Origin: an uncultured delta proteobacterium
Lineage (GTDB): Bacteria > Desulfobacterota > Desulfobacteria > Desulfobacterales > SG8-13
Direction: 5' to 3'
NCBI GenBank assembly: GCA_963848135.1
Contig: CAWKCK010000018.1
Coordinates: 448,938 to 512,937 of the forward strand
DNA: 64,000 nucleotides
The position numbers were made by a program, and so were the translations under genes. Below the pieces are notes generated by a model. That model was not told the DNA's origin, did not search any database, and saw only the letters and a program-made list of their open reading frames with translations. Each line of letters starts with the position of its first letter. Within the stretch, counting starts at the first letter, position 1. This document shows, in pieces, positions 1,205 through 23,314 of the stretch.

Positions 1205-1329
1205 AGGATCGTCCTGAAAATTTTATGATCATTTATGGGCTAAAAAATTTTATACGGATCTGAGCATTATCACTTTTGTAATGTTACCCAACCAAAATGC
1301 GAATCGTGGTGCGATAAAGATACATTAAA

Positions 1330-1380
1330 ACTATATGGAAATAATTCGGGAGGTCAATACTAAGGACAGCTTTCCAGTAT
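1330..1380 (-). promoter_or_regulatory. Conserved 51-bp element containing a sigma70-like promoter (copy 1)
   Basis: Minus strand TTGACC-16 bp-TATAGT; 44/51 identical by manual alignment to 11583..11633. Confidence 0.55.
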
Positions 1381-1588
1381 GACAACTGTCAAAAATTATA
1401 TCTTCGGTGAAGGTATGATGTGGCTATGAGGACCATTTGAAAAATACTTACAGATGCTCTATATAGCAACTATCTTTAGTTAGCAGGTCTTACAGGTAGG
1501 TCGAGTCTATCGCATGTGAAAGCTTTTTAATTCATCGGTGTTCGCATTGGCGTGTTGTGCATCACCGTAGACGGTTCATATAAATCAA

Positions 1589-2224
1589 TCACCGTCCCTC
1601 CCATCTTTTCCCCAAAGTGTGTTGGTGGCGCGGACTATTCCGTCTCACCATGGTAATTGGCTTACCGACCACGCTCACTTCGCTTTTTTCGGTGGTACAT
1701 AAGGATCCGGTGTGCCGAGAAGTATGGGTGGCTCCGCTTTCAAGGTTTTTTAGAAATTCCACGACCCGTGACATCACGACCGGCAGTATCCATGTCGAGT
1801 CAGGGGCGATATCCATATTCTCTTTCGGGTCTTTTGTAAGGTTGTAAACCAACGGAATGTTGCGTTTTTGCGGAATGCCGAACATACTGTTTAACTCGAT
1901 AAAATGGACCTTCCAGTTGCGCCACTTGTACGCAAAAAGATCATCGTGGTTATAAACGGGAAATCCTTTACGCTTGCTGTGCCCGTTCATAGTGAAGAAA
2001 AGATCGGACTGATCGATACCATCGATCAGTCGGTCGCTGGGCACTTGATAGCCGCCAACGCCGGAGAGTGTCGGCAATAGATCGGTGATGTGCAACATTT
2101 CATTGGTCACTTTTCCGGCCGGAACCTTTGATGGCCAGCGGATGATGAAAGGCGCCCGCAAGGAGCCTTCAAGTGCTGTGAATGAATTACCCCGCCGCAA
2201 GCGTACAGGGTAATTCATTGACAT
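1589..2224 (-). pseudogene. Arylsulfatase C-terminal fragment
   Basis: Motifs EGSLRAPFIIRWP, HITDLLPTL, IDGIDQ, YNLTKDPKE; the N-terminal CxPxR catalytic region is absent and the C-terminus appears frameshifted. Confidence 0.75.
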
Positions 2225-2614
2225 ACAACACGCAACTCCATATACTCCACTACTAAAAAAGGTAATTCGTTATCAATGATGATATCAAGCTCCTGGCGAC
2301 CACTTTGATTATATTCCCATGTTCTAATTTCTTTAGAAGATTATCCTTATATTGTTCTTTTCAGGGATTGATTTGGTGGGTCTAAATTGTTATAAAGGTA
2401 AAGAGGGCCAATTTGCTGATAATGGATTGGCCAATTTTGACTGTTAAATGTTATTCTTTCTTGGATCATATCTACCTTCTTTTTAATTTTATCTTAAATA
2501 TCAGGCAGAGATTGACCTCTTTCTCAAAACCTGTCAATTCTCATTTTGTTATGTAGAGTGGCAAGCAAATCTTACACTCATGTTATTACTGGATCTTACT
2601 TTTTTTGTTAGCAG

Positions 2615-3763
2615 GTGATGCGAATGTACAAAATAATAAGAATAGTCAGATCTGCTATATTTACCATTATTATCCTGTCCCCCTGTTTTTGTGCTATGGC
2701 AGGACCAGTCCCAGATACAGGCCAAACCAAATGTTACAATGACTCTGTTGAGATCACATGTCCTGAACCGGGAGAAGACTTTTATGGTCAAGATGCCCAG
2801 TACCAAATAAATCCACCCTATTTTACCAAACTTGATGCCCAAGGTAATGACTTGCCTGGTACAGCCACCTCCTGGGTAATGGTTCGAGACAATGTGACCG
2901 GGTTGATATGGGAAAATAAAAAAGACATGGATGGGATTATATACAGTTATTCTAATACCCATGATGCAGACAATTCGTACACCTGGTATGACAGTAATCC
3001 AGATACCAATGGTGGCGATGCCGGCAATCCTGGAGATGGAAGGGATACAGAGGATTTTATTTATGCTTTAAATTCTGACAATTTCGGAGGGTTTTCAGAC
3101 TGGCGCCTACCAACCACAGAGGAACTGCTTTCCATTGTTGATTATGGAAGATATGACCCCTCTATAGATACAACCTATTTCCCCAATACTAAGTTGTGGT
3201 ATTATTGGTCGTCCACTACCAAAGTGCGCTTTGTAGATAGGGCGTGGCGTGTCAGTTTCGAGGATGGCGAGGTTGATTGGGACTATAAAAGGATTAGCAG
3301 ATATGTTCGTGCTGTACGCGGAGAACAGTCTGAAAAAACCTATGTTGATAATGGTAACGGGACAGTTACGGATGTATCCACAGGACTGGTATGGCAGCAG
3401 GCAACGGCCGGACCAATGGACTTGAAATCAGCCCTCAAATATTGTGAAAGACTTACTCTTGGGGGTTGTTCCAATTGGAGGCTCCCGAATATCAAGGAAC
3501 TGGCATCGATTGCAGACTTCAGTAAGGTAAGTCCTACAATAGATACAACTTATTTTCCCATTACCCAGGCGTATTTCTACTTTTCGTCTACTACCAATGC
3601 TGCTATTACCGAGAATGTGTATCTCCTGGAATTCAATAGCGGATATATTTATAGTTACGCGAAGTCCTTTGACTACGTTTTTGTCCGTGCCGTGCGCGAA
3701 GGGCAGTGTGTGGAATCCAAAATAATGAACATGCCATGGCTTAATATTTTGCTGGATGATTAA
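2615..3763 (+). CDS. Secreted DUF1566 (Lcl C-terminal-like) domain protein
   Basis: Signal-peptide-like N-terminus, PDTGQTKCY, two repeats of D.VTGL.W...WRLP...EL.SI...YW/FSST...VRAVR. Confidence 0.85.
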   Translation: MMRMYKIIRIVRSAIFTIIILSPCFCAMAGPVPDTGQTKCYNDSVEITCPEPGEDFYGQDAQYQINPPYFTKLDAQGNDLPGTATSWVMVRDNVTGLIWENKKDMDGIIYSYSNTHDADNSYTWYDSNPDTNGGDAGNPGDGRDTEDFIYALNSDNFGGFSDWRLPTTEELLSIVDYGRYDPSIDTTYFPNTKLWYYWSSTTKVRFVDRAWRVSFEDGEVDWDYKRISRYVRAVRGEQSEKTYVDNGNGTVTDVSTGLVWQQATAGPMDLKSALKYCERLTLGGCSNWRLPNIKELASIADFSKVSPTIDTTYFPITQAYFYFSSTTNAAITENVYLLEFNSGYIYSYAKSFDYVFVRAVREGQCVESKIMNMPWLNILLDD

Positions 3764-3974
3764 TCTGATAGAACTAAAAAGCTCAAAAAAATAACTGGTA
3801 TTTATATCCTGGTAAATGTTTGTTCACAGATACGTAAGATGAAAGCTTAGTAATATCGTTCTTCCAAAATTTAAATGTTTCTTGCCAATAAACCAACTAT
3901 CGGAAATCACGCCATTCGAAACGATAGGGTCTGGCTATCACAAGCAAATCGACCAGATGATATGTCAGGGTTCA

Positions 3975-5401
3975 GGCAAGTAGCGCGGAGGAGTCTCACC
4001 CCTACGCCCTCCAAGAACCGTACGTGACAGTCTCCCGTCATACGGCTCCTACTGTCCAGCCGAAGGCCGGAAGCCAAATCCCCAGGATGCGAGCAGTCTG
4101 GGTTCCCGACGGGCTATACGTCCCAACCAATGGGCCGCCCTTCGCCAATGACCTCGCAGTCTTTTGTATTTCCGCATGGCCCAACGTACCAATGCATTTT
4201 GAATCTGACGTAAGATGGGATAAAGTGCTGTTTTGCGAAATTTGCCATAGTAATTCAACCAACCTCTAACCACGGGGTTGATTCGTTTGGCAATATCCTC
4301 CAAAGAAGCGGAACTCCACAATTGCAATTTCCACCCTCTTATTTTTGCACCCATCTCTTTGACGGCTGATTTGCTGACCGCTGGTGTAAAACCCACAAAG
4401 CAATTCCGCCCCTTACACAAACGAGCACGAAATTCATAGCCGAGAAAATCAAAACTCTCGTGCATGTAACTTCCCGGGCGTGTGGCGTTCTTACAATAGA
4501 CAATCTTCGTCTTCTGCGGACTCAATTTTAACTTACACCGCGCCAGCCGCAGTTCAATGGCTCTCAACATAAATTTTGCTTGAAATTCCGTACGGCAATG
4601 CACAATGATGTCATCCGCATACCTCGCAAATACAGCAATCGGATGGCTTACTCTCATCCATTCATCAAACACATGGTGAAGAAAAATATTGGCCAGCAAG
4701 GGGCTAATTACACCCCCTTGGGGTGTGCCCTTTTCTCTTTCGATTAGGCTGCCATCTGCCAGCTGTGCTGGAGCTTTTAGCCACCTCTCTATGTAGAGCA
4801 ATATCCACCTGCTATTCGTATGTTTCCTCACTGCATGTAACATCAGATTGTGGTCAATTTCATCGAAAAACCCTTGGATGTCTAAATCCAACACCCAGCC
4901 ATACCTCCAGCACCGCTTGCGAACCACGGCCACCGCATCAAGTGCCGATTTGCCGGTTATATAACCATAAGAGTCCGCATGAAATATCGGTGCCACTTGT
5001 GGCTCCGCCACTTGCGTTTCTCCCTTAACATCGAGACGACAGGTTCCCACGTTCCATACAAAAGCCTGAATCAAGGTCATGCCATCTTTATGCCGGACGC
5101 CGCCCAGACAGTAAGCAGGTGGCCTCTGGGCTTATCCTGGGATTCTGCTAGTACCCCAGTTTTGACGTCATCTCTGCCTTTTCGACACCTCAGCAATGGT
5201 TCGCTCGCGCTCATCTCCTTGATTCATACCTGATCCCGTCAAGCGAGACCTTTTCCTTAACGCTCACCACCCTGGCTCTTTACCAGCGCAGCTTAAGGTG
5301 GTTTGAAACCTGCTCCTGCAAGCCGGTTCCGAGGGGCCTACCCTCATCTTTTGTACAGTTACACACACTCTATTTATATTTAAAGTGCGCTCGTGGCACA
5401 C
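3975..5401 (-). mobile_element. Group II intron (IIB, RmInt1/class D-like), internally deleted
   Basis: 5' end GTGTGCCACG at 5401; domain V GAGCCGTATGACGGGAGACTGTCACGTACGGTTC (AGC triad) and domain VI ending ~3975; EBS1 TAGCAG (5145-5150) is complementary to exon end CTGCTA (5402-5407). Confidence 0.88.
4049..5080 (-). pseudogene. ltrA: Group II intron reverse transcriptase/maturase, N-terminally truncated
   Basis: FHADSYGY, DLDIQGFFD, GTPQGGVISPLLANIFLH, RYADD, FDFLG and domain X (INPVVRGWLNYY); RT0-RT2 start is missing, the first ~27 codons are intron RNA; no endonuclease domain. Confidence 0.85.
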
Positions 5402-11633: not shown

Positions 11634-11794
11634 ATGGAATAGGGAAAAACTATATGTATGATATGGAGTTTAGGGAGTTTAGGGACATCCTGTATTCCCC
11701 CTGTCAAGCTTTTACTTTTTTATATTGATTACAACTTGTTATAATATTTGTAATCAAATGGACGCACTTATCTTCTACGTTTTTGGTTAAGGAA

Positions 11795-11977
11795 TTCGGC
11801 GGATAAACTCGCTTGTAAATGAGCCCTGACTTGATCGTTACTTTTATACGGCATATCCCTGACAGAGAGGGATCACCCATCATCCCTTGTCAAAGTTTGG
11901 GGCTCAGCGAGAGGCCCTTAATTGTCCCTCCAGAGGTCTCAAAGCCTCAACGTCCATTCTCGGGCTCTCTCGCCGAA
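11795..11977 (-). ncRNA. Putative IS110 bridge/seek RNA (copy 1)
   Basis: Mirror of 21341..21523. Confidence 0.7.
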
Positions 11978-11993
11978 GTCTGTTCGATTCAAG

Positions 11994-13277
11994 CTATATC
12001 TTCAGATATGACGGGCTGAACGGTTCCTTTTTCTTCATCAAGGTCCAGGCGATCACCAAAAATTTTGACGCCAACTTGACACGCATTTTGGTGCGAATAC
12101 CTTTTTCTTTTTCTCTGCCTTTCAGGATGCTGTGATAATAAGCTCTGAACTGCCTGGTCAAGCTCGAGGCCACCAAAGCTGCCTGGTAAAGAGCGTAACG
12201 CAAATCGCCTTTGCCTTTCTTGCTGATTACCGGCACGGCGCTGCGGCTTCTTTTACCGCTGCGCGAAGCATTCAGGTCAAAGCCTGCCAGTCGTTTGAGC
12301 TGCTGGATGTTTTCAAAACGGTGCGGGTTGCCGATCGCAGCCAGCACGACCGCCGACACATACGGCCCGAATCCTGGAATTGTCTGCAGGTGAGCATACT
12401 CCTCGCAGCTGCCGCTAATCTTTTCGATTTCCTTCTCGACTTTTTCGATCTGCTCTTTGGTGCTTTTGATATTCTCGGTAAGGACTTTTGCTTCAAGTTG
12501 CATCGCAGTGCCGGGGCGACAGCCGATCGACTCGCCGGCCATCTCCCAAACTGTGCGTAGACGACGACGTTGACGGATGCCTCGGCAGCGCTTTGTTACC
12601 CGATTAAAAAAGTCTTCAAATTCCAAAGATCTGATTTTCTCGGGAGACAAAAACCAGCGCACTATGGCCAGGTTCTCGTCTTCAGCCTGATTCCACGATT
12701 TGTCGAGCTCCGGAAAGTACTGTGCCACAAGATTGTTGCGGATGCGCACCCGGCAGCTGTGAAGCTGCTTCTTTAAACGCTTTCGCAACAACAGCAGACT
12801 GCGCAGTTCACGGATCGGCATGCCGGGCAGATCATAATAGTTGCATTTTCCCTGGCTGATAAGATCGGCCACATTGGCTGCATCTTTGGTGTCGTTTTTG
12901 TCCCAGCGCCCATCGAGCAATGTCCGGTTTTTCTTTATGGCCTCATTGGTGACATACACGACCATGTGACCGTGCTCGATGAGCTTCTCGGCCAGAGGTT
13001 TATGATATACACTGGTTGGTTCAACACCGAAAACGACCTCTCTGAAACCGTCGCGGTCCATGTAAAACTGCACACGGGTTAGAAGCTTCTCCAGCCCTTG
13101 CCGTGAATTTTCAAAGATCAAGCCTTTCAAAACGGTTTTACCGTTTGCGGTTCCCAGGAAAGCGTGATGCGTACTCTTGGCGATATCGATTCCTACGATC
13201 AAATGACGATCCGAACCCCGAATCTCCTGCTTGAGTTGACGGAACCCCTCGATCCTGCTAAGGTCAGAGTCGTTCAT
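11994..13277 (-). CDS. IS110 family recombinase/transposase
   Basis: DEDD RuvC-like motifs VGIDIAK, VEPTS, KNDTKDA; C-terminal IPGFGP and SRSGK...ISKKG...LRYALY. Confidence 0.95.
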   Translation of the reverse strand: MNDSDLSRIEGFRQLKQEIRGSDRHLIVGIDIAKSTHHAFLGTANGKTVLKGLIFENSRQGLEKLLTRVQFYMDRDGFREVVFGVEPTSVYHKPLAEKLIEHGHMVVYVTNEAIKKNRTLLDGRWDKNDTKDAANVADLISQGKCNYYDLPGMPIRELRSLLLLRKRLKKQLHSCRVRIRNNLVAQYFPELDKSWNQAEDENLAIVRWFLSPEKIRSLEFEDFFNRVTKRCRGIRQRRRLRTVWEMAGESIGCRPGTAMQLEAKVLTENIKSTKEQIEKVEKEIEKISGSCEEYAHLQTIPGFGPYVSAVVLAAIGNPHRFENIQQLKRLAGFDLNASRSGKRSRSAVPVISKKGKGDLRYALYQAALVASSLTRQFRAYYHSILKGREKEKGIRTKMRVKLASKFLVIAWTLMKKKEPFSPSYLKI

Positions 13278-13411
13278 GATAACCTCCTTTTAGCTGTGGG
13301 TTTAGGTTTTGGGTGCCCTTATGCTATCAGGAGGTTATTTTTTTACAAGGCGATAATTACTTTCTTTTTTACTACTCTTGGAAGTATATTCTATAGTTAT
13401 TTCAATATATA

Positions 13412-13579
13412 ACGCCCATAAAATTATAATTTTCTATTCCTTTCTAAGCTTTAATTGCTCACTACTGGCAATCTTATCACCACGCCTGACTGAAATACTG
13501 ACCGAGGGCTTTGAGATGCCAAGGCCGAGCAACTTTAGCTTGTAGAAAATTAGGAGGTTATTACGTTATTGGTGTCCCC
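13412..13579. mobile_element. Non-autonomous RAYT-derived mini element made of two opposed 3' ends
   Basis: Minus strand encodes LGISKPSVSISVRRGDKIASSEQLKLRKE* (cf. C-terminus of 18845..19852); plus strand from ~13518 reads AKAEQL*LVEN* then TATTGGTGTCCCC. Confidence 0.65.
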
Positions 13580-13650: not shown

Positions 13651-16600
13651 TCATTGAAGAAGCAGAAACAAGATTCCAGGATTAATTTTAGACGCACTAT
13701 CAACGAATAATTCGACATTCTTTCCCGTCATACTAGCCGAAATACCGAATGCGCCGATGGCTGCCTCTGGCTCACCTTTATCCAATGCTCGGTCTGCGTC
13801 AATATCCATGAATGCCGCTACGTAGTAATGATTCCGGGCGGGAACATTGGCAATGCTGTATGCCCAGGGACCGGAGCCTAAGGGAGTGAGGATAGTGGTT
13901 TTAGCCAGAGCAGTAATCAGTCCTGAGCTATCATATACGGCAACGTAGATCTGCTGTCGTTCAGCTCCAGCGTAGGAGACATTGCCGGAAACCATATACC
14001 GCCTTGTATCAGTGGCATGATTATAGTTCGATCCGCCGGGATCATCTACTTCGGTCGGCCGCGTATCGAAACCATCCGCATAACCGTCATTGTCATCATC
14101 GGTGTCGGCATTGTTGCCAATCCCGTCGGAGTCGGTGTCAAACCACTCGGTTGCATCCCTCGGAAAGGCATCGTTCTCATCTAAAACCGTATCGTTGTCA
14201 TCATCGGTGTCGGCAATATCCCCAATGCCATCTGAATCTGTATCCAACCATTCATTGATGTCATTGGGGAAGGCGTCCTCGACATCGGCAACGCCATCAC
14301 CATCGCTGTCGGCTCTGATGGTGAAGTGGGGCATGCTGGAATAGAAGATTTGATGTATGGAGCAGTTATCGACATCTTGATCTGGGGCCTGCTCTCTGTA
14401 GGAATATATTCTGTAACTATAGGTATGGTTTACTTTAAGGACACCAGGGGCAAACGTGTAGGTACTGTCCGCCAGATAATCACTCCACTGTATCGGGTTG
14501 TTCCAGCCGTCGTTTAACCTGATGCGGTAGCGGGATGCCCCCGGCACATCATTCCAATCCACTGTTGGAGTGGTGCTTATGCGGATTGAATCTGCTGCGG
14601 GTGTGACATTGGCCGGCAGTGGCAGGTCACTTACTGAGAGATCGTCATGGACAAAGTGGGTATTGCTATCAAAATCGGTGACGATAAAGGTGTATATCCC
14701 TGCTTGAATGGCGGAAGAGTCACTGTAAACTTCAAAATCCTCATATATCGCTTCAGTCGAGCTTATATGCCGATCGTATCGCAGATAACGGTTTGTTGTA
14801 CCGTCCGGATAGACAACTTTTACGGACTGTATATTGGATGGCACACCGTCTGGATCCGAAACTTTAACCTCAAAGGCCAACCAGTAACTCGAACTTGAAG
14901 TATGCGGCATAACCGTATGAGCCACATAGGCACCCAAATTATCAAGATCGAGTGTGGGACTGGATGAACCGCCTGTAAGGGAAGTTGTTAAAAACTCAGG
15001 GCTTTGATCATGCGCCCAGGGGCTTGAGGACCCATGGTCCACATTCTGATCGAAAAACTCCCGGTGGGTTTTTACTCTATAACGGTAGAGGGTTTTCTCT
15101 TTCAGAAAGCCTTGGGCAAGCTGATAGGTGCTTTGAGTGGTGGGAAATGCATACAACCGGTTTCCGTCCGTATCGTATATTTCGAGGCGGTAGAAAGCAG
15201 CCCCGGAAACATCCTCCCAATCGAAATTCAAACCGGTGCTATTGACCAGCGTGTTGTGAACCGGTGTCAGCGTCGATGAATCCGGATATCCAATTGGGTT
15301 AAATGTCAATATTTCATCAACCGAATAACTGTTGCCAGACAGGTCCTCAACGACAAATGTGTAGGTTCCGTTTTGAATTGACACCGGATAACTTTCTCTC
15401 GAATACGCCCCTCCTGTTGGTGTATTTGAGGTGTATCCAGGATAGTAGTAGAGAAATTCTTCACCTCCGCCGGGATAGATCACTTTAACCGATTTGATGT
15501 CCCCCGGTACACCTTGAGCGTCATGAACTATAATCCAGAATGACAAACCGGTACCCATAAGTTCGCTATTCCAAACCTGTACACCGGCACTATCGAGTTC
15601 GATAAAGGGCGCCGCCGCCTCTGTCGATCCGGTGTAAAACCGATAGGATTGGCTGGTCGAGGCCGGCGATTTGGATCGATTGTCTATTTCTAAAGGATCA
15701 TGGGCATCCCGCGCTTCGACTCGAAACCGGTAATAAGTATTCGGCTCAAGAACCCCCGGAGGTACCCGGCAGGAAGTCACATTTCCGACATTGCCGTTCC
15801 AGATAGTCCTATTGTTGTCGTGACTAAATATTCTAACTTTATAGCGGTTCGCGCCGGGAATCGTATCCCAGGTAAAGGTAGGCGTAGTCGTGGTCACCAA
15901 ATTCATCCTGGCCACCAGCGACATGTAGGGCATTTTAGGTGGTGTAAAGGTGCCGGTAGGCGTATATTCGGCCGTATTCCCGTCGGCGTCAAAAGTCAGT
16001 TTTGTACCGTCCCATGTTATGGAAACCGTGACCGTTTGCCCCAGGCTCACAGACATTAGTTGTCCGCCGTCAAGGTGATCCCAGTGATAGGTTTCCTGTG
16101 CGTTGATGTTGTCTAGAGATACGCTGTAGGTGATCCTGTCATCTCTAACGTATATATTTGCGCTGATATCACCCGCACCGTTGTTGAGGAATGTGCCGGA
16201 AATTCTACCTCCGGCACTGCTATCCATGCTGATGCTCGGGACCGAAATATCCGCCCGCAGCGAATAAATACTGGCTGGATCCTTAAATGCTAGTCCACCG
16301 TTGCCGCGGCCGATTGTGTCGTTTATCGTAACCGACAGTTTTTGGCCCTGAATGGAGGCGTTTTCATACCACGGCTCCCACTTTTTAAGGTCGAGATCTG
16401 CAATGGAAGTATAGGAATTGAAGTCTTCATATAGGGATCCATTGACCCATACATTATCGAATGTGGCGGTGATGCTTTCAACTGTCGGATTTTTAAGGCT
16501 GGGGGTCAATGACTCCTCGTCCGGGACCGCCAGCGGATTTACGACAAGGGTGTCCACGTGTGTTCCGGTATTGCCTTCGGGATCGGTTACTGTGAAAGTG

Positions 16601-18786
16601 TAATCTCCCGCCTGAGGAGAGCCCGCCTGCCAAAAATCATATTCACCGGCAGTTGGGCTCACCGCATTACTATGCCCTAACTGTTTGGTGGTCGTCCCAT
16701 CCGGAAAGATCACTTCTACCTCATGACTGTTTCCGTTATAGGCGACACCATCGTGATCGACAACCCGGATGAACAATGACAAATTGCTCCCATCGGCATC
16801 CGAATCCGTTACGGCACCCCATTGCACGGAGTCAATGGCCGGTTTGGCACTGTGAGGCGCTAAACTCCCCGCCATCGTAAAGGTCAGCCAAGCGCTGTTT
16901 GAACGGTTGTCTTCGTCTACCCAATCGGCGTTATCACCCACTCTGACATACCACTCGTAGGTCTGTCCGGGTAGTAAAATTCCGGCGGGAACTGTGCAGG
17001 AAAGCAAATTTTGTTCCCTTGCTGTCCAAAAAACATTTTCCCCCAACGAGTTTTTGATCCACATTCTGTAAAATAAGGGCCCATCGGTGTAGTCTACCGC
17101 CGCCCAACTGAAAGTAGGCGTCTTAGAGGTCAGGATAGCTCCATTAGCGGGAGAAAAGGTGGCGGAATCCGGAATCGGAAGGGTGAGGTTGACATGCTGG
17201 ATATTTGTATCCGTGGCAATGGCCGAATCGCTGCTGACAACAGTGACAGAATAGGTACCGATTTCAGGAGAACCCGGTACTCTGAGAATGAACTCCCTGA
17301 AATCCGAAAGATAGTCGAAATCGACCTTAGTATAGGGCAGTACCCCACTGGGTCCCGTGATGGTGATTTGCGTTATATCATCGGGTAAGGTGCCGTAAAA
17401 ATCAGTGCCAATCTCCACTTCAAATTGGGTTTTTACACTCTGATCGAACTCTCGCCTGTTTTTTTCTACAAAGGTAATCGTAAAACTATGGTTTAAAACA
17501 AAGTCGGTTTCCGGTAAATTCTGGCCGGATAGAACCGTAAGTGGCATTGCATAATTACAGTCGCCTGTGCCGGCGCCTCCGTCCCACCATTGGTCCATAT
17601 AATTGCGCGGCACATTAACATTAGCATCGGCTTTAAGGAAAACCTTACCGGGCGTCAAACCTGATATTGTAAAATTTCCGCTTGCATCGGTGTTACCTGC
17701 GCCAATCCAGTTATTCCAACAACGATCAGAATAGGCGACCACCACCACACTTGCCAGGGATTGGCTATCGCTTCCGGTGACCGTGCCGGAGATAGAACCT
17801 GCCAGATCGAGCGAGAAATCAATATTGGCGGTCGTCTGACTCTGAACTATATCTACCTGGGCGGCTGACGACCAGTAAGTTGTATCGCTATAATACTCCT
17901 GCGCATAATTGCCCTGCGGGTCCGAAACCACAACCCTGTGACCTCCAGCCGGAACACCGGTTATGGAGTAAAATCCGTTAGCCAGAGTGTACTCCCGGCC
18001 AACCTGATAGTCCGTAGAATAATCTTTAACCTCAACACGTATACCCTCTATTGGATTACTTGAAACCGAATCAGTAACAAGGCCTGTTATGGTCCCACCA
18101 AGCTCCAGACTGAAATTTATGCCTGAGATTGTCTGACCCTCGGTCACATCGATTTTGGTGGCCAGGTTTGCGGCATAGGTGCCGTTGTAATATTCATCAA
18201 CATAGTTCGTTCCTGAGCAATCCACCCATATGCGGTAACTGCCCGGTGCCAAGCCGGTAACCGAATAATCGCCAACGGAATCCGTCTGATCCTCGCTTAC
18301 GCAAAATCCAGAAGTAAATTCACATGCATACACTCTAATATTTTCAACAGGATTATCAGTGGCTGTATCTTTAATATTCCCGGAAATTGATGCACCGGCG
18401 CCTATGCTAAAGTTAATATTGGAGGTGGTCTCGCCTTGAGTTACTGCAACAAGTGAAGCTGAATCGTAGCTGAATTCGTTATTATAATATTCGTATGCGT
18501 GGATGGTGCCACTGGTATAAACAAGAACTTTATAACTCCCGGTGGATAGCCCCGAATAACTGTAGTCGCCACTAGCATCCGTTGCCACAGAGCCGACCCA
18601 TGACCCCGAAACGTAATCACGAATTTGAACGCTTAATCCGCTAATCGGCATTGCCGTAACCGAACTGGTCACATTCCCGGAAATGGTGCCCGCAATGGCT
18701 GCCACCGGAACAACGAGGGCAAGAATTAGGAATACTGATAAAAAGTTAAATATTCGAGGCATTGGATGATATAAAGTCATTTTCAT
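13651..18786 (-). CDS. Large secreted/surface protein with carboxypeptidase-regulatory-like beta repeats, FN3-like repeats and thrombospondin type-3 repeats
   Basis: 1711 aa; signal peptide; repeated G.ISG.V...TD..G.Y...GL..G.Y units; PTF.W..V.GA..YR repeats; DSDGDG..D..DAFP.D..EW.DTDSDGIG repeats. Confidence 0.8.
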   Translation of the reverse strand: MKMTLYHPMPRIFNFLSVFLILALVVPVAAIAGTISGNVTSSVTAMPISGLSVQIRDYVSGSWVGSVATDASGDYSYSGLSTGSYKVLVYTSGTIHAYEYYNNEFSYDSASLVAVTQGETTSNINFSIGAGASISGNIKDTATDNPVENIRVYACEFTSGFCVSEDQTDSVGDYSVTGLAPGSYRIWVDCSGTNYVDEYYNGTYAANLATKIDVTEGQTISGINFSLELGGTITGLVTDSVSSNPIEGIRVEVKDYSTDYQVGREYTLANGFYSITGVPAGGHRVVVSDPQGNYAQEYYSDTTYWSSAAQVDIVQSQTTANIDFSLDLAGSISGTVTGSDSQSLASVVVVAYSDRCWNNWIGAGNTDASGNFTISGLTPGKVFLKADANVNVPRNYMDQWWDGGAGTGDCNYAMPLTVLSGQNLPETDFVLNHSFTITFVEKNRREFDQSVKTQFEVEIGTDFYGTLPDDITQITITGPSGVLPYTKVDFDYLSDFREFILRVPGSPEIGTYSVTVVSSDSAIATDTNIQHVNLTLPIPDSATFSPANGAILTSKTPTFSWAAVDYTDGPLFYRMWIKNSLGENVFWTAREQNLLSCTVPAGILLPGQTYEWYVRVGDNADWVDEDNRSNSAWLTFTMAGSLAPHSAKPAIDSVQWGAVTDSDADGSNLSLFIRVVDHDGVAYNGNSHEVEVIFPDGTTTKQLGHSNAVSPTAGEYDFWQAGSPQAGDYTFTVTDPEGNTGTHVDTLVVNPLAVPDEESLTPSLKNPTVESITATFDNVWVNGSLYEDFNSYTSIADLDLKKWEPWYENASIQGQKLSVTINDTIGRGNGGLAFKDPASIYSLRADISVPSISMDSSAGGRISGTFLNNGAGDISANIYVRDDRITYSVSLDNINAQETYHWDHLDGGQLMSVSLGQTVTVSITWDGTKLTFDADGNTAEYTPTGTFTPPKMPYMSLVARMNLVTTTTPTFTWDTIPGANRYKVRIFSHDNNRTIWNGNVGNVTSCRVPPGVLEPNTYYRFRVEARDAHDPLEIDNRSKSPASTSQSYRFYTGSTEAAAPFIELDSAGVQVWNSELMGTGLSFWIIVHDAQGVPGDIKSVKVIYPGGGEEFLYYYPGYTSNTPTGGAYSRESYPVSIQNGTYTFVVEDLSGNSYSVDEILTFNPIGYPDSSTLTPVHNTLVNSTGLNFDWEDVSGAAFYRLEIYDTDGNRLYAFPTTQSTYQLAQGFLKEKTLYRYRVKTHREFFDQNVDHGSSSPWAHDQSPEFLTTSLTGGSSSPTLDLDNLGAYVAHTVMPHTSSSSYWLAFEVKVSDPDGVPSNIQSVKVVYPDGTTNRYLRYDRHISSTEAIYEDFEVYSDSSAIQAGIYTFIVTDFDSNTHFVHDDLSVSDLPLPANVTPAADSIRISTTPTVDWNDVPGASRYRIRLNDGWNNPIQWSDYLADSTYTFAPGVLKVNHTYSYRIYSYREQAPDQDVDNCSIHQIFYSSMPHFTIRADSDGDGVADVEDAFPNDINEWLDTDSDGIGDIADTDDDNDTVLDENDAFPRDATEWFDTDSDGIGNNADTDDDNDGYADGFDTRPTEVDDPGGSNYNHATDTRRYMVSGNVSYAGAERQQIYVAVYDSSGLITALAKTTILTPLGSGPWAYSIANVPARNHYYVAAFMDIDADRALDKGEPEAAIGAFGISASMTGKNVELFVDSASKINPGILFLLLQ

Positions 18787-18822: not shown

Positions 18823-19906
18823 ACGCCCATAAAATTATAAATTTCTATTCCTTTATAAGCTTTAATTGCTCGCTTCTGGCAATCATATCACCACGCTTAA
18901 CTGAAATACTGACCGAAGGCTGTGAGATACCAAGCTTTTTTGATAGTTCGGTGGCGCTGAAACCCAGCTTCCTTACCGCCCAATAACACAATAAACTGCG
19001 CGCTTTGACTGTGAGCGGATATTTGCCGGCCCTCCACACCTGTTCAGGATCTATACCCAACTCTGATGACACTCTCATGGTTACTTTTTCTAAATCATAT
19101 CCTTGGGCTTTAAGTCGATAGCGCTCCTCCAAACGCTCTTGCGCTTGATCTAATACGGCCTGTGCAAATTCACCGTCGCCCAAAATACGCTCATCACTTT
19201 TCATATGATCCTGTGCCCGGCGCATCGCTTTGACGGCCGACCAGCCGCCGGCACTTCGAACAAGACCGCCTCCAACCAACTCCGGCCGACGGCCCCGGGC
19301 TATGCCCTTATCGACATAGGCCCGGTAGGCTTTACGCGCAGCGGCAACTTTCCTTCCAAACAGCCGCAGTACATAGGCGGTGTCCTGAAAATCTCTTTTA
19401 ACTTTTCCCATCAGCACGCTATGGCCACTGTATGGATATTTATCGGATTCTGTCAGACTTTCAACGCTTTTGGCGCGTAATGGATTCAGATGAATATAAC
19501 GCACCAATTCCAGCAAGTAGGTGTCCTCTTGGCACAATATTGATTTGTAACGATTCTGGAATAGATGTCCATGCCGCCGGTGCCGGCGATTAAACGAAAC
19601 CGCATAGCCGGTTAATAGCCGTCTCATCACCGTGGCCAAAGGCGCTTGTCCGGTTCGCAGTAAAATATGCGCATGATTGGGGATAAGCGCCCAGGCGAAA
19701 CAGGCGGTTTGTGTTTCAGTGACGATATCGCCCAAACGTTTGACGAAATTATCCCGGTCCTGATCATCCGAGAATATCCGTTGACGCTTGATTCCCCGGA
19801 CGAAGATATGATGCAGCGCTCCAGGAGCATCGATGCGCGATTTGCGTGGCATAAAACCTTTATATCATCTATTGTTCATTCATAAAAGTTATAATTCTAT
19901 GGGCGT
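18823..19906 (-). mobile_element. RAYT-like (Y1 HUH) element bounded by 18-bp inverted repeats
   Basis: ACGCCCATAAAATTATAA (18823-18840) and TTATAATTCTATGGGCGT (19889-19906), 17/18 match. Confidence 0.7.
18845..19852 (-). CDS. REP-associated tyrosine transposase-like protein (Y1_Tnp) with C-terminal HTH
   Basis: MPRKSR...HHIFVRG, NHAH (HUH), GHLFQNRYKS, RYIHLNP, C-terminal HTH ATELSKKLGISQPSVS. Confidence 0.88.
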   Translation of the reverse strand: MPRKSRIDAPGALHHIFVRGIKRQRIFSDDQDRDNFVKRLGDIVTETQTACFAWALIPNHAHILLRTGQAPLATVMRRLLTGYAVSFNRRHRRHGHLFQNRYKSILCQEDTYLLELVRYIHLNPLRAKSVESLTESDKYPYSGHSVLMGKVKRDFQDTAYVLRLFGRKVAAARKAYRAYVDKGIARGRRPELVGGGLVRSAGGWSAVKAMRRAQDHMKSDERILGDGEFAQAVLDQAQERLEERYRLKAQGYDLEKVTMRVSSELGIDPEQVWRAGKYPLTVKARSLLCYWAVRKLGFSATELSKKLGISQPSVSISVKRGDMIARSEQLKLIKE

Positions 19907-20040
19907 TATATATTGAAATAACTATAGAATATACTTCCAAGAGTAGTAAAAAAGAAAGTAATTATCGCCTTGTAAAAAAATAACCTCCTGATAGCATAAG
20001 GGCACCCAAAACCTAAACCCACAGCTAAAAGGAGGTTATC

Positions 20041-21324
20041 ATGAACGACTCTGACCTTAGCAGGATCGAGGGGTTCCGTCAACTCAAGCAGGAGATTCGG
20101 GGTTCGGATCGTCATTTGATCGTAGGAATCGATATCGCCAAGAGTACGCATCACGCTTTCCTGGGAACCGCAAACGGTAAAACCGTTTTGAAAGGCTTGA
20201 TCTTTGAAAATTCACGGCAAGGGCTGGAGAAGCTTCTAACCCGTGTGCAGTTTTACATGGACCGCGACGGTTTCAGAGAGGTCGTTTTCGGTGTTGAACC
20301 AACCAGTGTATATCATAAACCTCTGGCCGAGAAGCTCATCGAGCACGGTCACATGGTCGTGTATGTCACCAATGAGGCCATAAAGAAAAACCGGACATTG
20401 CTCGATGGGCGCTGGGACAAAAACGACACCAAAGATGCAGCCAATGTGGCCGATCTTATCAGCCAGGGAAAATGCAACTATTATGATCTGCCCGGCATGC
20501 CGATCCGTGAACTGCGCAGTCTGCTGTTGTTGCGAAAGCGTTTAAAGAAGCAGCTTCACAGCTGCCGGGTGCGCATCCGCAACAATCTTGTGGCACAGTA
20601 CTTTCCGGAGCTCGACAAATCGTGGAATCAGGCTGAAGACGAGAACCTGGCCATAGTGCGCTGGTTTTTGTCTCCCGAGAAAATCAGATCTTTGGAATTT
20701 GAAGACTTTTTTAATCGGGTAACAAAGCGCTGCCGAGGCATCCGTCAACGTCGTCGTCTACGCACAGTTTGGGAGATGGCCGGCGAGTCGATCGGCTGTC
20801 GCCCCGGCACTGCGATGCAACTTGAAGCAAAAGTCCTTACCGAGAATATCAAAAGCACCAAAGAGCAGATCGAAAAAGTCGAGAAGGAAATCGAAAAGAT
20901 TAGCGGCAGCTGCGAGGAGTATGCTCACCTGCAGACAATTCCAGGATTCGGGCCGTATGTGTCGGCGGTCGTGCTGGCTGCGATCGGCAACCCGCACCGT
21001 TTTGAAAACATCCAGCAGCTCAAACGACTGGCAGGCTTTGACCTGAATGCTTCGCGCAGCGGTAAAAGAAGCCGCAGCGCCGTGCCGGTAATCAGCAAGA
21101 AAGGCAAAGGCGATTTGCGTTACGCTCTTTACCAGGCAGCTTTGGTGGCCTCGAGCTTGACCAGGCAGTTCAGAGCTTATTATCACAGCATCCTGAAAGG
21201 CAGAGAAAAAGAAAAAGGTATTCGCACCAAAATGCGTGTCAAGTTGGCGTCAAAATTTTTGGTGATCGCCTGGACCTTGATGAAGAAAAAGGAACCGTTC
21301 AGCCCGTCATATCTGAAGATATAG
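20041..21324 (+). CDS. IS110 family recombinase/transposase
   Basis: Protein identical to 11994..13277; AGGAGG RBS. Confidence 0.95.
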   Translation: MNDSDLSRIEGFRQLKQEIRGSDRHLIVGIDIAKSTHHAFLGTANGKTVLKGLIFENSRQGLEKLLTRVQFYMDRDGFREVVFGVEPTSVYHKPLAEKLIEHGHMVVYVTNEAIKKNRTLLDGRWDKNDTKDAANVADLISQGKCNYYDLPGMPIRELRSLLLLRKRLKKQLHSCRVRIRNNLVAQYFPELDKSWNQAEDENLAIVRWFLSPEKIRSLEFEDFFNRVTKRCRGIRQRRRLRTVWEMAGESIGCRPGTAMQLEAKVLTENIKSTKEQIEKVEKEIEKISGSCEEYAHLQTIPGFGPYVSAVVLAAIGNPHRFENIQQLKRLAGFDLNASRSGKRSRSAVPVISKKGKGDLRYALYQAALVASSLTRQFRAYYHSILKGREKEKGIRTKMRVKLASKFLVIAWTLMKKKEPFSPSYLKI

Positions 21325-21340
21325 CTTGAATCGAACAGAC

Positions 21341-21523
21341 TTCGGCGAGAGAGCCCGAGAATGGACGTTGAGGCTTTGAGACCTCTGGAGGGACAATTAA
21401 GGGCCTCTCGCTGAGCCCCAAACTTTGACAAGGGATGATGGGTGATCCCTCTCTGTCAGGGATATGCCGTATAAAAGTAACGATCAAGTCAGGGCTCATT
21501 TACAAGCGAGTTTATCCGCCGAA
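21341..21523 (+). ncRNA. Putative IS110 bridge/seek RNA (copy 2)
   Basis: Outer stem TTCGGCG/CGCCGAA encloses two stem-loops with large internal loops; loop 1 carries ATGGACGT and AGGGAC, which match the target. Confidence 0.72.
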
Positions 21524-21832
21524 TTCCTTAACCAAAAACGTAGAAGATAAGTGCGTCCATTTGATTACAAATATTATAACAAGTTGTAATCAATATAAAA
21601 AAGTAAAAGCTTGACAGGGGGAATACAGGATGTCCCTTATTTTTCTTATTTTTATCTTCGCCACTGGTCTTTCTATCACTAATTGCTTATAGCCTTGTTT
21701 GTGATGTGCTTTTTGTCTGGATGCCGACTTTTGGCAACGGGCGTAATATTGTGCACGCTTCCTCTTGACCTTCTGGTATCCTATCCTAATGTTTCGTTTT
21801 CATAATCTTCATTTGAGAGGCAGGAGAATTCT

Positions 21833-23314
21833 ATGATGCCCAGCAGCAGACAAAACCGCCCGGACGCCGGGTGGAAATTCGAGAACAGTTACGCACGGTT
21901 GCCGGAGGCTTTCTATGTCCGGCTGAATCCAGTACCGGTGCGCACGCCGAAACTCGTGATTTTCAACGTAGCGCTGGCGCAGTTTTTGGGGCTGAACCCC
22001 GATGCCCTAAATGGCGATGAGGGCGCCGCCGTTTTCTCGGGCAACAAGCTTCCCGAGGGGGCCGAGCCTCTCGCTCAGGCCTATGCGGGGCATCAATTCG
22101 GTTTTTTCACCATGCTGGGCGATGGGCGGGCAATATTGCTGGGCGAGCAACTGACACCGAAAGGTGAGCGCTTCGACATCCAGTACAAAGGGTCCGGCAG
22201 AACCCCGTTTTCGCGGCGGGGGGACGGGCGGGCGGCCCTGGGGCCGATGCTACGGGAGTACATCATCAGCGAGGCCCTGCACGCCCTGGAAATACCGACG
22301 ACCCGCAGCCTTGCGGTGGTGACCACTGGTGAACCGGTGTCCCGTGAAACCACCCTGCAGGGTGCGATTCTCACCCGCACGGCGGCCAGCCACATCCGCG
22401 TGGGCACTTTCGAGTATGCGGCGGCAAGGGCAAAACCCAACGAGTTCCGGACGCTGGCCGATTACACCATCCGTCGCCACTTTCCTGATCTGGCCGCGGA
22501 CGGGAATCCGTATCTTGCCCTACTTGGGGCCGTCATGGAGCGGCAGGCGTCCCTGGTGGCCCGCTGGCTCCAGGTCGGCTTCATCCACGGCGTTATGAAC
22601 ACGGACAACATGGCCCTTTGCGGTGAAACCATCGATTACGGCCCCTGCGCGTTCATGGACGCCTACGATCCGATTACCGTCTTCAGTTCCATCGATCAAA
22701 ACGGCCGATACGCCTACGGCCGGCAGCCGCAGATCGCCCAGTGGAATCTTGCCCGGTTTGCCGAGACACTGTTGCCGCTAATTCACGAGGATCCGCAAGA
22801 GGCCGTATCGATGGCAAAAGAGGCAATCTCTGGATTTTCAGACAGCTTCCGTCATTACTGGCTGGCGGGCATGCGGGCCAAACTGGGACTGTTGAACCAG
22901 GAAGCGGATGACGGCGCTCTGGTGGAGGACTTGCTCGATTGCATGCACCGACACGGAGCGGATTTTACCAACACCTTTCGCGAGCTGGCATCCGGTTCCT
23001 TGCCGGAGGCCTCCGTGTTCCGGGCCCTGGATTTTAAGCAGTGGTTTGAGCGCTGGCAGGCCCGGCTAAAACGGCAACCTGATTCCTGGGAGGCAGCCCG
23101 TCGGCTTATGAACACCCACAACCCGGCGGTCATCCCCCGCAACCACCGGGTGGAAGAGGCCTTGGAGGCAGCCGTGGAGCGGGCCGATTTTACGGTCATG
23201 GAAAAACTACTGGTTTTTCTGTCCCAACCCTACCAGAATCCACCGAAACAGGCCGGCTATCACCAGCCACCGCCCCCTTCGGCGCAGCCCTACCAAACCT
23301 TTTGCGGGACGTGA
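21833..23314 (+). CDS. selO: Protein adenylyltransferase SelO (YdiU family)
   Basis: [41 protein letters not shown], terminal TFCGT. Confidence 0.95.

Follow-up and report, generated by a model that had tools for sequence, protein, structure and literature searches.

In this study we analysed a stretch of 64,000 nucleotides (nt) from an uncultured delta proteobacterium of the Desulfobacterales (contig CAWKCK010000018.1, positions 448,938 to 512,937), referred to below as the window. Our results indicate that positions 21341–21523 of the window very probably encode the bispecific guide RNA (bridge RNA or seekRNA) of an insertion sequence (IS) of the IS110 family. The segment lies within the 307-nt right end of this IS (19907–21631) and begins 17 nt past the stop codon of the transposase gene, on the same strand. 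The claim is built on conservation, on covariation of the RNA type, on covariation between a guide and the flanks of insertions, and on the boundaries and the core of the element, all of which are established from the data below. An earlier note on this DNA, made from the letters of the window, had proposed a bridge RNA of the IS110 family encoded downstream of a protein of 427 amino acids (aa). Both points agree with our data: the guide covaries with the flanks, the protein scores above the cut-off of the NCBIfam model NF033542, and the RNA does follow the gene of a DEDD transposase.

The claim is carried by a loop segment that tracks the DNA into which the element has inserted. The left target guide ATGGACGT and the hexamer AGGGAC (21389–21394) are located on opposite sides of one internal loop, and the 5' loop strand ATGGACGT has the sense of the left target plus core. 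In a blind scan of all RNA columns against all DNA positions the top pair was 21362 and flank position −5 (mutual information 0.99), which carry the same base in 83% of 54 insertions. The pair 21363/−4 (0.51) was also among the strongest, with one gap-rich insert column scoring higher. Over the six positions before the core the mean match in these insertions is 5.07 of 6 as compared to 3.84 ± 0.14 after shuffling, and none of 20,000 shuffles reached the observed value. The match is complete in 21 insertions and 5/6 in 23, i.e. 44 of the 54 have at most one mismatch. When each of the 20 distinct guides is represented by one insertion, the mean is 5.1–5.3 against 3.6 ± 0.22 for shuffled pairs (0 of 5000), and an earlier shuffle test based on regular expressions gave the same answer. 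The earlier note had picked ATGGACGT as left target guide from a 7/8 match and had proposed folding homologous right ends and comparing their covariation with the targets. This comparison supports the structure, and the left guide follows the flank.

On the opposite strand of the loop the right target guide is strongly conserved: among 64 distinct RNA sequences each of the three G residues is present in 62–63, and the A and C in all 64. The earlier note had also counted the leading A of AGGGAC as a guide base. The part GGGAC opposite GT-CCC stands, and A21389 is ruled out, since no more than 16 of 57 cases show complementarity between it and flank position +4. The right guide is taken as 21390–21394 because A21389 does not covary with the flank.

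The boundaries of the element follow from its copies. There are three copies in the genome, 100% identical, two of them within the window and the third on contig C5. Copy 2 (G000:C18:460618–462370, 100% identity) has no differences from copy 1 across 1711 nt. The DNA surrounding the three copies differs, and the part common to them is ATGG(G/A)C-GT on the left and GT-CCC on the right: copies 1 and 2 read ATGGGC-GT/IS/GT-CCCT and copy 3 reads ATGGAC-GT/IS/GT-CCCg. The junctions are equally regular in 80 related loci of other genomes, where they read NNNNNC-GT/TATATA and TATAG(G/A)AT/GT-CCC. A search for intact target repeats in 44 insertions gave two genuine cases, L054 and L032, in which a neighbouring repeat equals left flank, GT and right flank (over more than 30 matching bases in L032); a third case, L068, is trivial. 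These intact paralogous repeats have the sequence of the reconstructed target, and they fix both the ends and the core of two bases. The core dinucleotide is GT, as the earlier note had read it, and this is based on the identical copies and the two intact paralogous repeats. Insertion is site-specific at the common GT core, with no target duplication beyond the core in the three copies, L054 and L032. The reconstructed junction of the circle reads ATA-GGAT-GT-TA-TAT.

Some further insertions were noted. In L068 (at about 1350–1362) the left flank ATATAGAAT-GT resembles the right-end tip of the element itself, which may be due to a hit at a donor-like site or may be a trace of a tandem copy. 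Besides the three copies, the same genome contains a 160-nt right-end piece and a sister element, 66–68% identical, on contig C4. The sister element (L007, G000:C4:192500–198500, positions 1315–4834) has a frameshifted transposase gene, its own RNA with the guide ATAGGCGT and the left flank ATGGGC-GT. On its 3' side there is an IS5-like gene split by a GIY-YIG open reading frame (ORF), followed by the solo 160-nt piece of the window's element, which begins exactly at GTAAC (window 21477).

Conservation of the RNA was studied using a covariance model, R1, built from 40 sequences, which matches the window at 21339–21524 with 168.4 bits. A search of 83 sources, mostly loci from metagenome-assembled genomes of Desulfobacterota, gave 91 matches at E ≤ 0.001. 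At E ≤ 1e-25 there are 72 full-length matches of about 185 nt, and every one of them is downstream of a transposase gene. The six-helix model combines the helices found by RNAalifold on 45 MAFFT-aligned sequences, where most helices were recovered, with the arm-2 (donor-arm) stem of the earlier note. In the unfitted MAFFT alignment 89.5% of the cells are paired and 25 of the 37 pairs show compensatory changes. In the alignment of 64 distinct sequences (A4), which was fitted to the model structure and hence leans towards it, 94.0% of the cells pair, compared to 28–47% when the partners are slid by 1–3 columns; compensatory changes occur in 30 of the 37 pairs, each helix is at least 89.9% paired, and none of 500 shuffles reaches the observed values. 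Since G–U pairs are abundant, the RNA is assigned to the plus strand.

Most helices had been drawn in the earlier note. The outer stem is present and kept across homologues, and the arm-2 stem with its inner hairpin was found where it had been placed and is supported in homologues. For the arm-1 (target-arm) stem, AGAG(A)GCCC/GGGCCTCT and the inner hairpin GAGG/CCTC are borne out, and the proposed extension by GCG/CGC is ruled out by covariation, as these bases pair in the outer and connector helices. A search of Rfam 15 with 19000–22500 at E ≤ 10 gave eight chance-level matches, none near its gathering score. Relatives that have 140–320 nt between the stop codon and the RNA contain a second, partial and weak R1 match of 23–56 bits. 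It is located at 2761–2887 in L049–L051, at 2761–2859 in L032 and L034, and directly after the stop codon in L052, L012, L035, L039, L040 and L064. This second match resembles what would remain of a tandem copy of the bridge RNA after decay. In addition, a motif AGGAGAAGT(A/G)(C/T)GC is kept 20–45 nt past the RNA in most homologues, the window reading GTAGAAGATAAGTGCGT at 21540–21556; it could be part of a longer form of the RNA.

The donor arm was assigned with less certainty than the target arm, and the earlier note had rightly called it the weaker assignment. In the window the left donor guide equals the right-end tip ACA-GGAT plus the core G. In homologues, when read with the two-base bulge, it is AUA..G(G/A)AUG, which equals the right-end tip ATA-G(G/A)AT plus the core G. 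Position 21434 agrees with donor position −3 in 95% of the 56 cases compared, and this pair is the strongest donor signal of the blind scan (mutual information 0.74). Donor covariation thus consists of one well-sampled position (21434/−3) and two lineage-specific co-changes, the other positions being invariant on both sides. C21429 accompanies the tip TACAGGAT in the lineage of the window only (3 of 64), where the RNA reads ACA, and in L020, L027 and L028 a T variant is present in the RNA and in the right-end tip alike. The right ends of these three elements read GGATT-GT, with one extra T, and their RNA has GGGATTAT in place of GGGATGAT.

The candidate right donor guide is GUAAC. Across the 64 sequences UAAC is invariant and the base before it is G in 56, A in 7 and T in one; the donor starts with TATAT in 59 of 59. 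Both G and A as the first base of (G/A)UAAC are able to pair with the T of GT-TAT. As the RNA and DNA sides are both invariant, it is their complementarity that points to this candidate. The earlier note had proposed GGGATGA and TATAAA as the donor-reading segments. The former overlaps the covarying GGATG; the latter is not conserved, homologues carrying GGATAAAC, and GTAAC is preferred. The base 3' of each of the two right guides deserves attention. A21395, next to the right target guide, is present in 64 of 64 sequences and is complementary to donor T(−1), and G21482, next to GUAAC, is present in 62 of 64 and is complementary to target C(−1). These two bases may act as handshake bases, as judged by the handshake rule formulated for the guides of IS621 in the sections consulted of Hiraizumi 2024 (PMC11208158). 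Coordinates of all features are collected in Table 1.

Table 1. Features of the insertion sequence, its right-end RNA and the neighbourhood (window coordinates)
Feature	Position	Strand	Basis or remark
Insertion sequence, copy 1	19907–21631	+	GT at both edges (19905–19906; 21632–21633); flank comparison, homologue junctions
Insertion sequence, copy 2	11687–13411	−	own RNA at 11794–11979, minus strand; covariance-model match 168.4 bits
Left target half + core (ATGGGC-GT), occupied site	19899–19906	+	7/8 against the left target guide; copy 3: 8/8
Left end, 134 nt	19907–20040	+	starts TATATA (19907–19912), −10 half of the predicted junction promoter
IS110-family DEDD transposase (bridge recombinase), 427 aa	20041–21324	+	Pfam, NCBIfam, IS621 alignment
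Probable bridge/seek RNA gene, Y-shaped, outer stem closing target arm and donor arm	21341–21523	+	covariance model R1
Outer stem TTCGGCG/CGCCGAA	21341–21347 / 21517–21523	+	model and covariation
Target-arm stem AGAG(A)GCCC/GGGCCTCT	21348–21356 / 21401–21408	+	model and covariation
Left target guide ATGGACGT	21361–21368	+	covaries with left flank of insertions
Target-arm hairpin GAGG/CCTC	21370–21373 / 21382–21385	+	model and covariation
Right target guide GGGAC	21390–21394	+	complementary to top-strand GT-CCC
Connector helix	21409–21412 / 21505–21508	+	one pair: AU 32, UA 15, GC 14
Donor-arm stem GAGCCC/GGGCTC	21413–21418 / 21492–21497	+	model and covariation
Left donor guide, split	21428–21437	+	ACA 21428–21430, two-base bulge 21431–21432, GGATG 21433–21437
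Donor-arm hairpin	21441–21448 / 21460–21468	+	model and covariation
Candidate right donor guide GUAAC	21477–21481	+	pairs with top-strand GT-TAT, one G–T wobble
−35 hexamer TTGACA	21611–21616	+	17 nt from left-end TATATA if the ends are joined as a circle
Core + right target half (GT-CCC)	21632–21636	+	right flank starts CCC in 60 of 63 homologous insertions
RAYT-like (REP-associated tyrosine transposase) gene	18845–19852	−	Pfam Y1_Tnp E = 1.3e-08; NF047646 71 bits, below cut-off 80

The protein encoded upstream of the RNA has the two domains of IS110 transposases, PF01548 (DEDD_Tnp_IS110, 93 bits) and PF02371 (Transposase_20, 71.2 bits). It scores 183.7 bits against NF033542, 'IS110 family RNA-guided transposase', where the cut-off is 140. 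Among solved structures the best matches are the IS621 transposase (8wt6_A, E = 8.3e-20) and the ISCro4 transposase (E = 1.8e-16). The motifs GIDIAK, GVEPT, DKNDTKDA and SRSG align with the IS621 motifs containing D11, E60, D102/D105 and S241, and this motif alignment gives D31, E86, D129, D132 and S340 as candidate catalytic residues. A peptide-pattern search in one genome per GTDB species found a relative encoded in 237 of 327 matching stretches. In a plasmid collection the closest relatives are IS110-family genes of Bacillota, about 400 aa, with 26–29% identity over 92–98% of the protein.

We propose that the RNA folds as a Y, the outer stem closing two arms of which each consists of a stem, an internal loop and a hairpin. 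In the donor arm ACA..GGATG would read the right-end tip and the first core base, and GUAAC would pair with the core and the start of the left end. Strand exchange at the GT core would be carried out by the DEDD/Ser recombinase, which presumably acts as a tetramer, and the circularised element would enter sites resembling repetitive extragenic palindromic (REP) sequences, ATGG(A/G)C-GT-CCC, without target duplication. Joining of the ends would create a promoter TTGACA-17-TATATA that reads through the leader, the transposase gene and the RNA. Transcription, processing, binding by the protein, strand exchange and the handshake are the steps that we infer in this scheme. Of 60 homologues, 51 have TTGACA as the hexamer; its distance from the −10 half is 17 nt in 54 and 18 nt in 6. 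By analogy, the RNA is likely to arise from transcription that starts at the junction promoter and runs on through the element. The leader contains a hairpin (19980–19995/20024–20039, repeat I2, 16 nt, 88% complementary) that covers the ribosome-binding site of the transposase gene, its GGAGG being paired with CCTCC. Homologues retain the arrangement with altered stem sequences, and the hairpin therefore probably restrains translation from the linear copy.

A number of observations weigh against a bispecific guide RNA. Ten of the 54 insertions have at least two mismatches in the six left-guide positions, and copies 1 and 2 in the window have an A–C mismatch at −2. Appreciable variation is seen at just four guide positions (−5 to −2); natural variation is limited to about four left-guide positions because the right guide is near-invariant opposite a constant CCC. 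The shuffle controls leave the relatedness among the sequences in place, and the fitting of alignment A4 favours the structure. The left donor guide requires its two-base bulge and fails to match at the second core base, where the DNA has T and the RNA has A or C, and the GGATT-GT elements suggest that there the guide may have to be read with a one-base register shift. Neither the two right guides, target and donor, nor the two handshake-like bases vary, and the DNA opposite them is invariant too, so their role is assigned by complementarity and by analogy with IS621. In the linear copy no sigma-70-like promoter or terminator is adjacent to the RNA in a scan of 19850–21700, which gave two promoter-like and three terminator-like sites, about the level of shuffled sequence. 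Four metatranscriptome runs searched at a 90% likeness threshold matched only contigs of relatives, one of which (643 nt, run X2) covers 20995–21636 with 44 differences; such RNA-library contigs cannot show transcription, RNA ends or strand. Folded as a single sequence, the RNA is only mildly unusual (z = −2.07, with 6 of 200 shuffles folding equally well).

The points on the donor arm are those on which a narrower role could be built, namely that the RNA guides target choice only, as a narrow seekRNA, while the donor arm is a protein-binding scaffold and the ends are read by the recombinase or by the flanking target halves. The donor matches are short and interrupted (3 + 5 nt with the bulge), covariation cannot back the right donor guide and the element ends since both are invariant, and both strands of the donor loop carry GGATAA-like motifs for which no DNA match was found. 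Section 12 of PMC11187229 also describes short target-matching RNAs as sufficient in the assays used there, with flanking target bases needed for excision. However, 21434 follows donor −3 in nearly all cases, and the C variant of the window type and the T variant of L020, L027 and L028 are found in both the RNA and the right-end tip. In (G/A)UAAC, G and A alike pair with the T of GT-TAT, and stem, loop and hairpin are arranged in the donor arm as they are in the target arm. We consider a target-only RNA unlikely. Still more improbable is that the right-end structure is not a guide at all but a stabiliser in the 3' untranslated region, an attenuator or a set of DNA-level recombinase sites, with an incidental likeness to the target. 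The uninformative RNA-library contigs and a fold mildly better than that of shuffled sequences would suit this explanation, which we find hardly tenable: the compensatory pairs and the many G–U pairs argue for a plus-strand RNA, and it is a loop segment rather than the stems that tracks the host flanks of independent insertions, which a stabiliser or binding site would not do.

It could also be argued that the element is an ordinary member of the IS1111 group with a right-end seekRNA as in ISEc11, ISPa11 and ISKpn4. Published systems are cited here from the sections of the papers that deal with these traits. The RNA is upstream of the gene in IS110-type and downstream in IS1111-type elements (Durrant 2024, PMC11208160; Siddiquee 2024, PMC11187229), and the long downstream non-coding region with its RNA is what the window element has, with a left end of 134 nt and a right end of 307 nt. 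Other traits speak against this placement, which we regard as highly improbable. The subterminal inverted repeats of 7–17 base pairs (bp) of IS1111 elements are absent: a repeat search of the element and comparison of homologues found no long repeat conserved end-to-end, in agreement with the earlier note, which saw no obvious ones. The best candidate for a repeat shared by the two ends, an AT-rich pair of 11 nt set 31 nt inward in the right end, is not seen in homologues, and around the junction there is only a 6-bp pair AATATA/TATATT. Taking 'top' as the strand of the transposase gene, the 5' guide has top-strand sense and the 3' guide is complementary to it, i.e. the bottom-strand match comes first in the RNA and the top-strand match second, an order found in ISEc21 and IS621 and the reverse of that in the tested IS1111 members (ISEc11, ISPa11, ISKpn4, ISPst6). 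The protein of 427 aa is outside the 330–350 aa of IS1111 transposases and within the 395–455 aa of an IS110 subgroup (Siddiquee 2024, PMC11187229), and its closest plasmid-borne relatives are the Bacillota IS110-family genes mentioned above. The junction has the short ATA...TAT around the donor site that goes with the IS110 group. Many IS1111-group elements have a multi-loop donor site (Durrant 2024, PMC11208160). Thus only the downstream position of the RNA, where the IS110 group has it in the left end before the gene, resembles IS1111; in the order of its guides, the length of its protein and the absence of long subterminal repeats the element follows the IS110 group. According to section 12 of PMC11208160 and section 6 of PMC11187229, a minority of IS110-group elements have the non-coding region or the RNA downstream.

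The nearest well-described system is IS621 of E. coli (PMC11208160, PMC11208158, PDB 8wt6). Both have a recombinase with DEDD and Tnp domains, an RNA with two arms of stem, internal loop and hairpin, REP-like targets and a junction promoter (predicted for the window element). In IS621 the 5' loop strand pairs with the bottom strand and the 3' loop strand with the top strand, both including the core (PMC11208160), as in the window. The bases that follow the 3' guides, A opposite donor T and G opposite target C, are the letters of A81 and G166 of IS621 (PMC11208158). The window element differs in that its RNA is in the right end after the gene, whereas that of IS621 is in the left end; in addition, the two termini of the window RNA are held together by an outer stem, and the core is GT instead of CT. 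Moreover, the protein has 427 aa compared to 326–328, with sequence likeness confined to the two catalytic domains, and the left donor guide is bulged by two bases and leaves the second core base unmatched. ISEc21 shares the guide order, the absence of long subterminal repeats and a junction promoter on the circle; however, its non-coding region is upstream, its protein has 358 aa, and its seekRNA of 58–74 nt is described with target matches only in the sections on it (PMC11187229, section 12 for the guide order). ISPpu9 was considered as a parallel and rejected, since its downstream Ssr9 RNA is, in the relevant part of PMC12288879, not a bridge RNA. IS650 has the motif TKNDTKDA in common with the window protein.

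Among the IS650-like Bacillota elements of about 400 aa, the one on the Peribacillus plasmid NZ_CP133764 (L088, 753–2591) encodes a protein 28% identical to that of the window. It has a left end of 106 nt and a right end of 458 nt conserved across genera, and for this reason the arrangement seems to belong to a wider clade. The best match of model R1 to this relative, 6.5 bits (E = 0.13), is not significant; it lies inside the right end. Positions 2220–2591 of L088 are 77–85% conserved in other Bacillaceae plasmids even where the gene is unmatched, and since this is so, the right end probably harbours a guide RNA of its own. Our literature search returned nothing on this IS110 clade specifically. 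Joining these observations, one might see here a separate IS110-group lineage of Desulfobacterota proteins of about 400–430 aa with distant kin in Bacillota. The RNA of such a lineage would have reached its 3' position independently of IS1111, keeping the guide order and handshake bases of the IS621 type and gaining a stem that ties the arms and a split left donor guide. We offer this history tentatively, as a possibility that we ourselves doubt.

The surroundings of the target were also inspected. The target of copy 1 is about 50 bp upstream of the RAYT-like gene, and copy 2 lies just past a C-terminal RAYT remnant at 13434–13520 (last 50 codons, 56% identity). The IS targets are inverted relative to both RAYT-like genes, resembling REP units around RAYT. 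The right flank often repeats the target in other genomes. IS110-family elements favour REP sequences according to the part of PMC12288879 on target sites, and the sites in the window fit this. Free ATGG[AG]CGTCCC sites number three in the 6.03-Mb genome, about chance by our own estimate, and therefore the target is not an abundant repeat in this genome. Between copy 2 and the RAYT-like gene there is an unrelated ORF (13651–18786, minus strand) of 1711 aa with a signal-peptide-like start, many repeated modules and aspartate-rich repeats at its end.

Regarding novelty, the earlier note had spoken of a new programmable recombinase, which overstates the case: relatives are encoded in most of the stretches matched by the peptide pattern, NF033542 already names an RNA-guided transposase, and downstream exceptions are published. 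This is no new class. The principle dates from 2024, and the exceptions in RNA position as well as large-scale mining are in print, including guide predictions for 32,190 bridge RNAs with 86 covariance models, as given in the consulted part of a 2026 preprint (10.64898/2026.10.21.760802).

The family is a well-sampled natural series that comprises 72 RNAs and 20 distinct left guides for which the flanks are known. Bridge recombinases are under development as programmable tools for DNA insertion, excision and inversion. To these the family offers a GT core together with a compact RNA of Y shape that is encoded behind the recombinase gene. It also shows that, within the IS110 family, the position of the RNA and the order of its guides can be uncoupled. 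For annotation, it accounts for a recurrent insertion sequence of Desulfobacterota and for its preference for REP-like repeats beside a RAYT-like gene. If the separate-lineage history is true, 20 natural left guides against one constant right guide would be a panel of near-orthogonal recombinases, and such a panel could reveal what share of a bridge RNA is free to evolve. Under the same history, duplication and replacement of guides could be recorded in the decayed tandem copies that some relatives contain.

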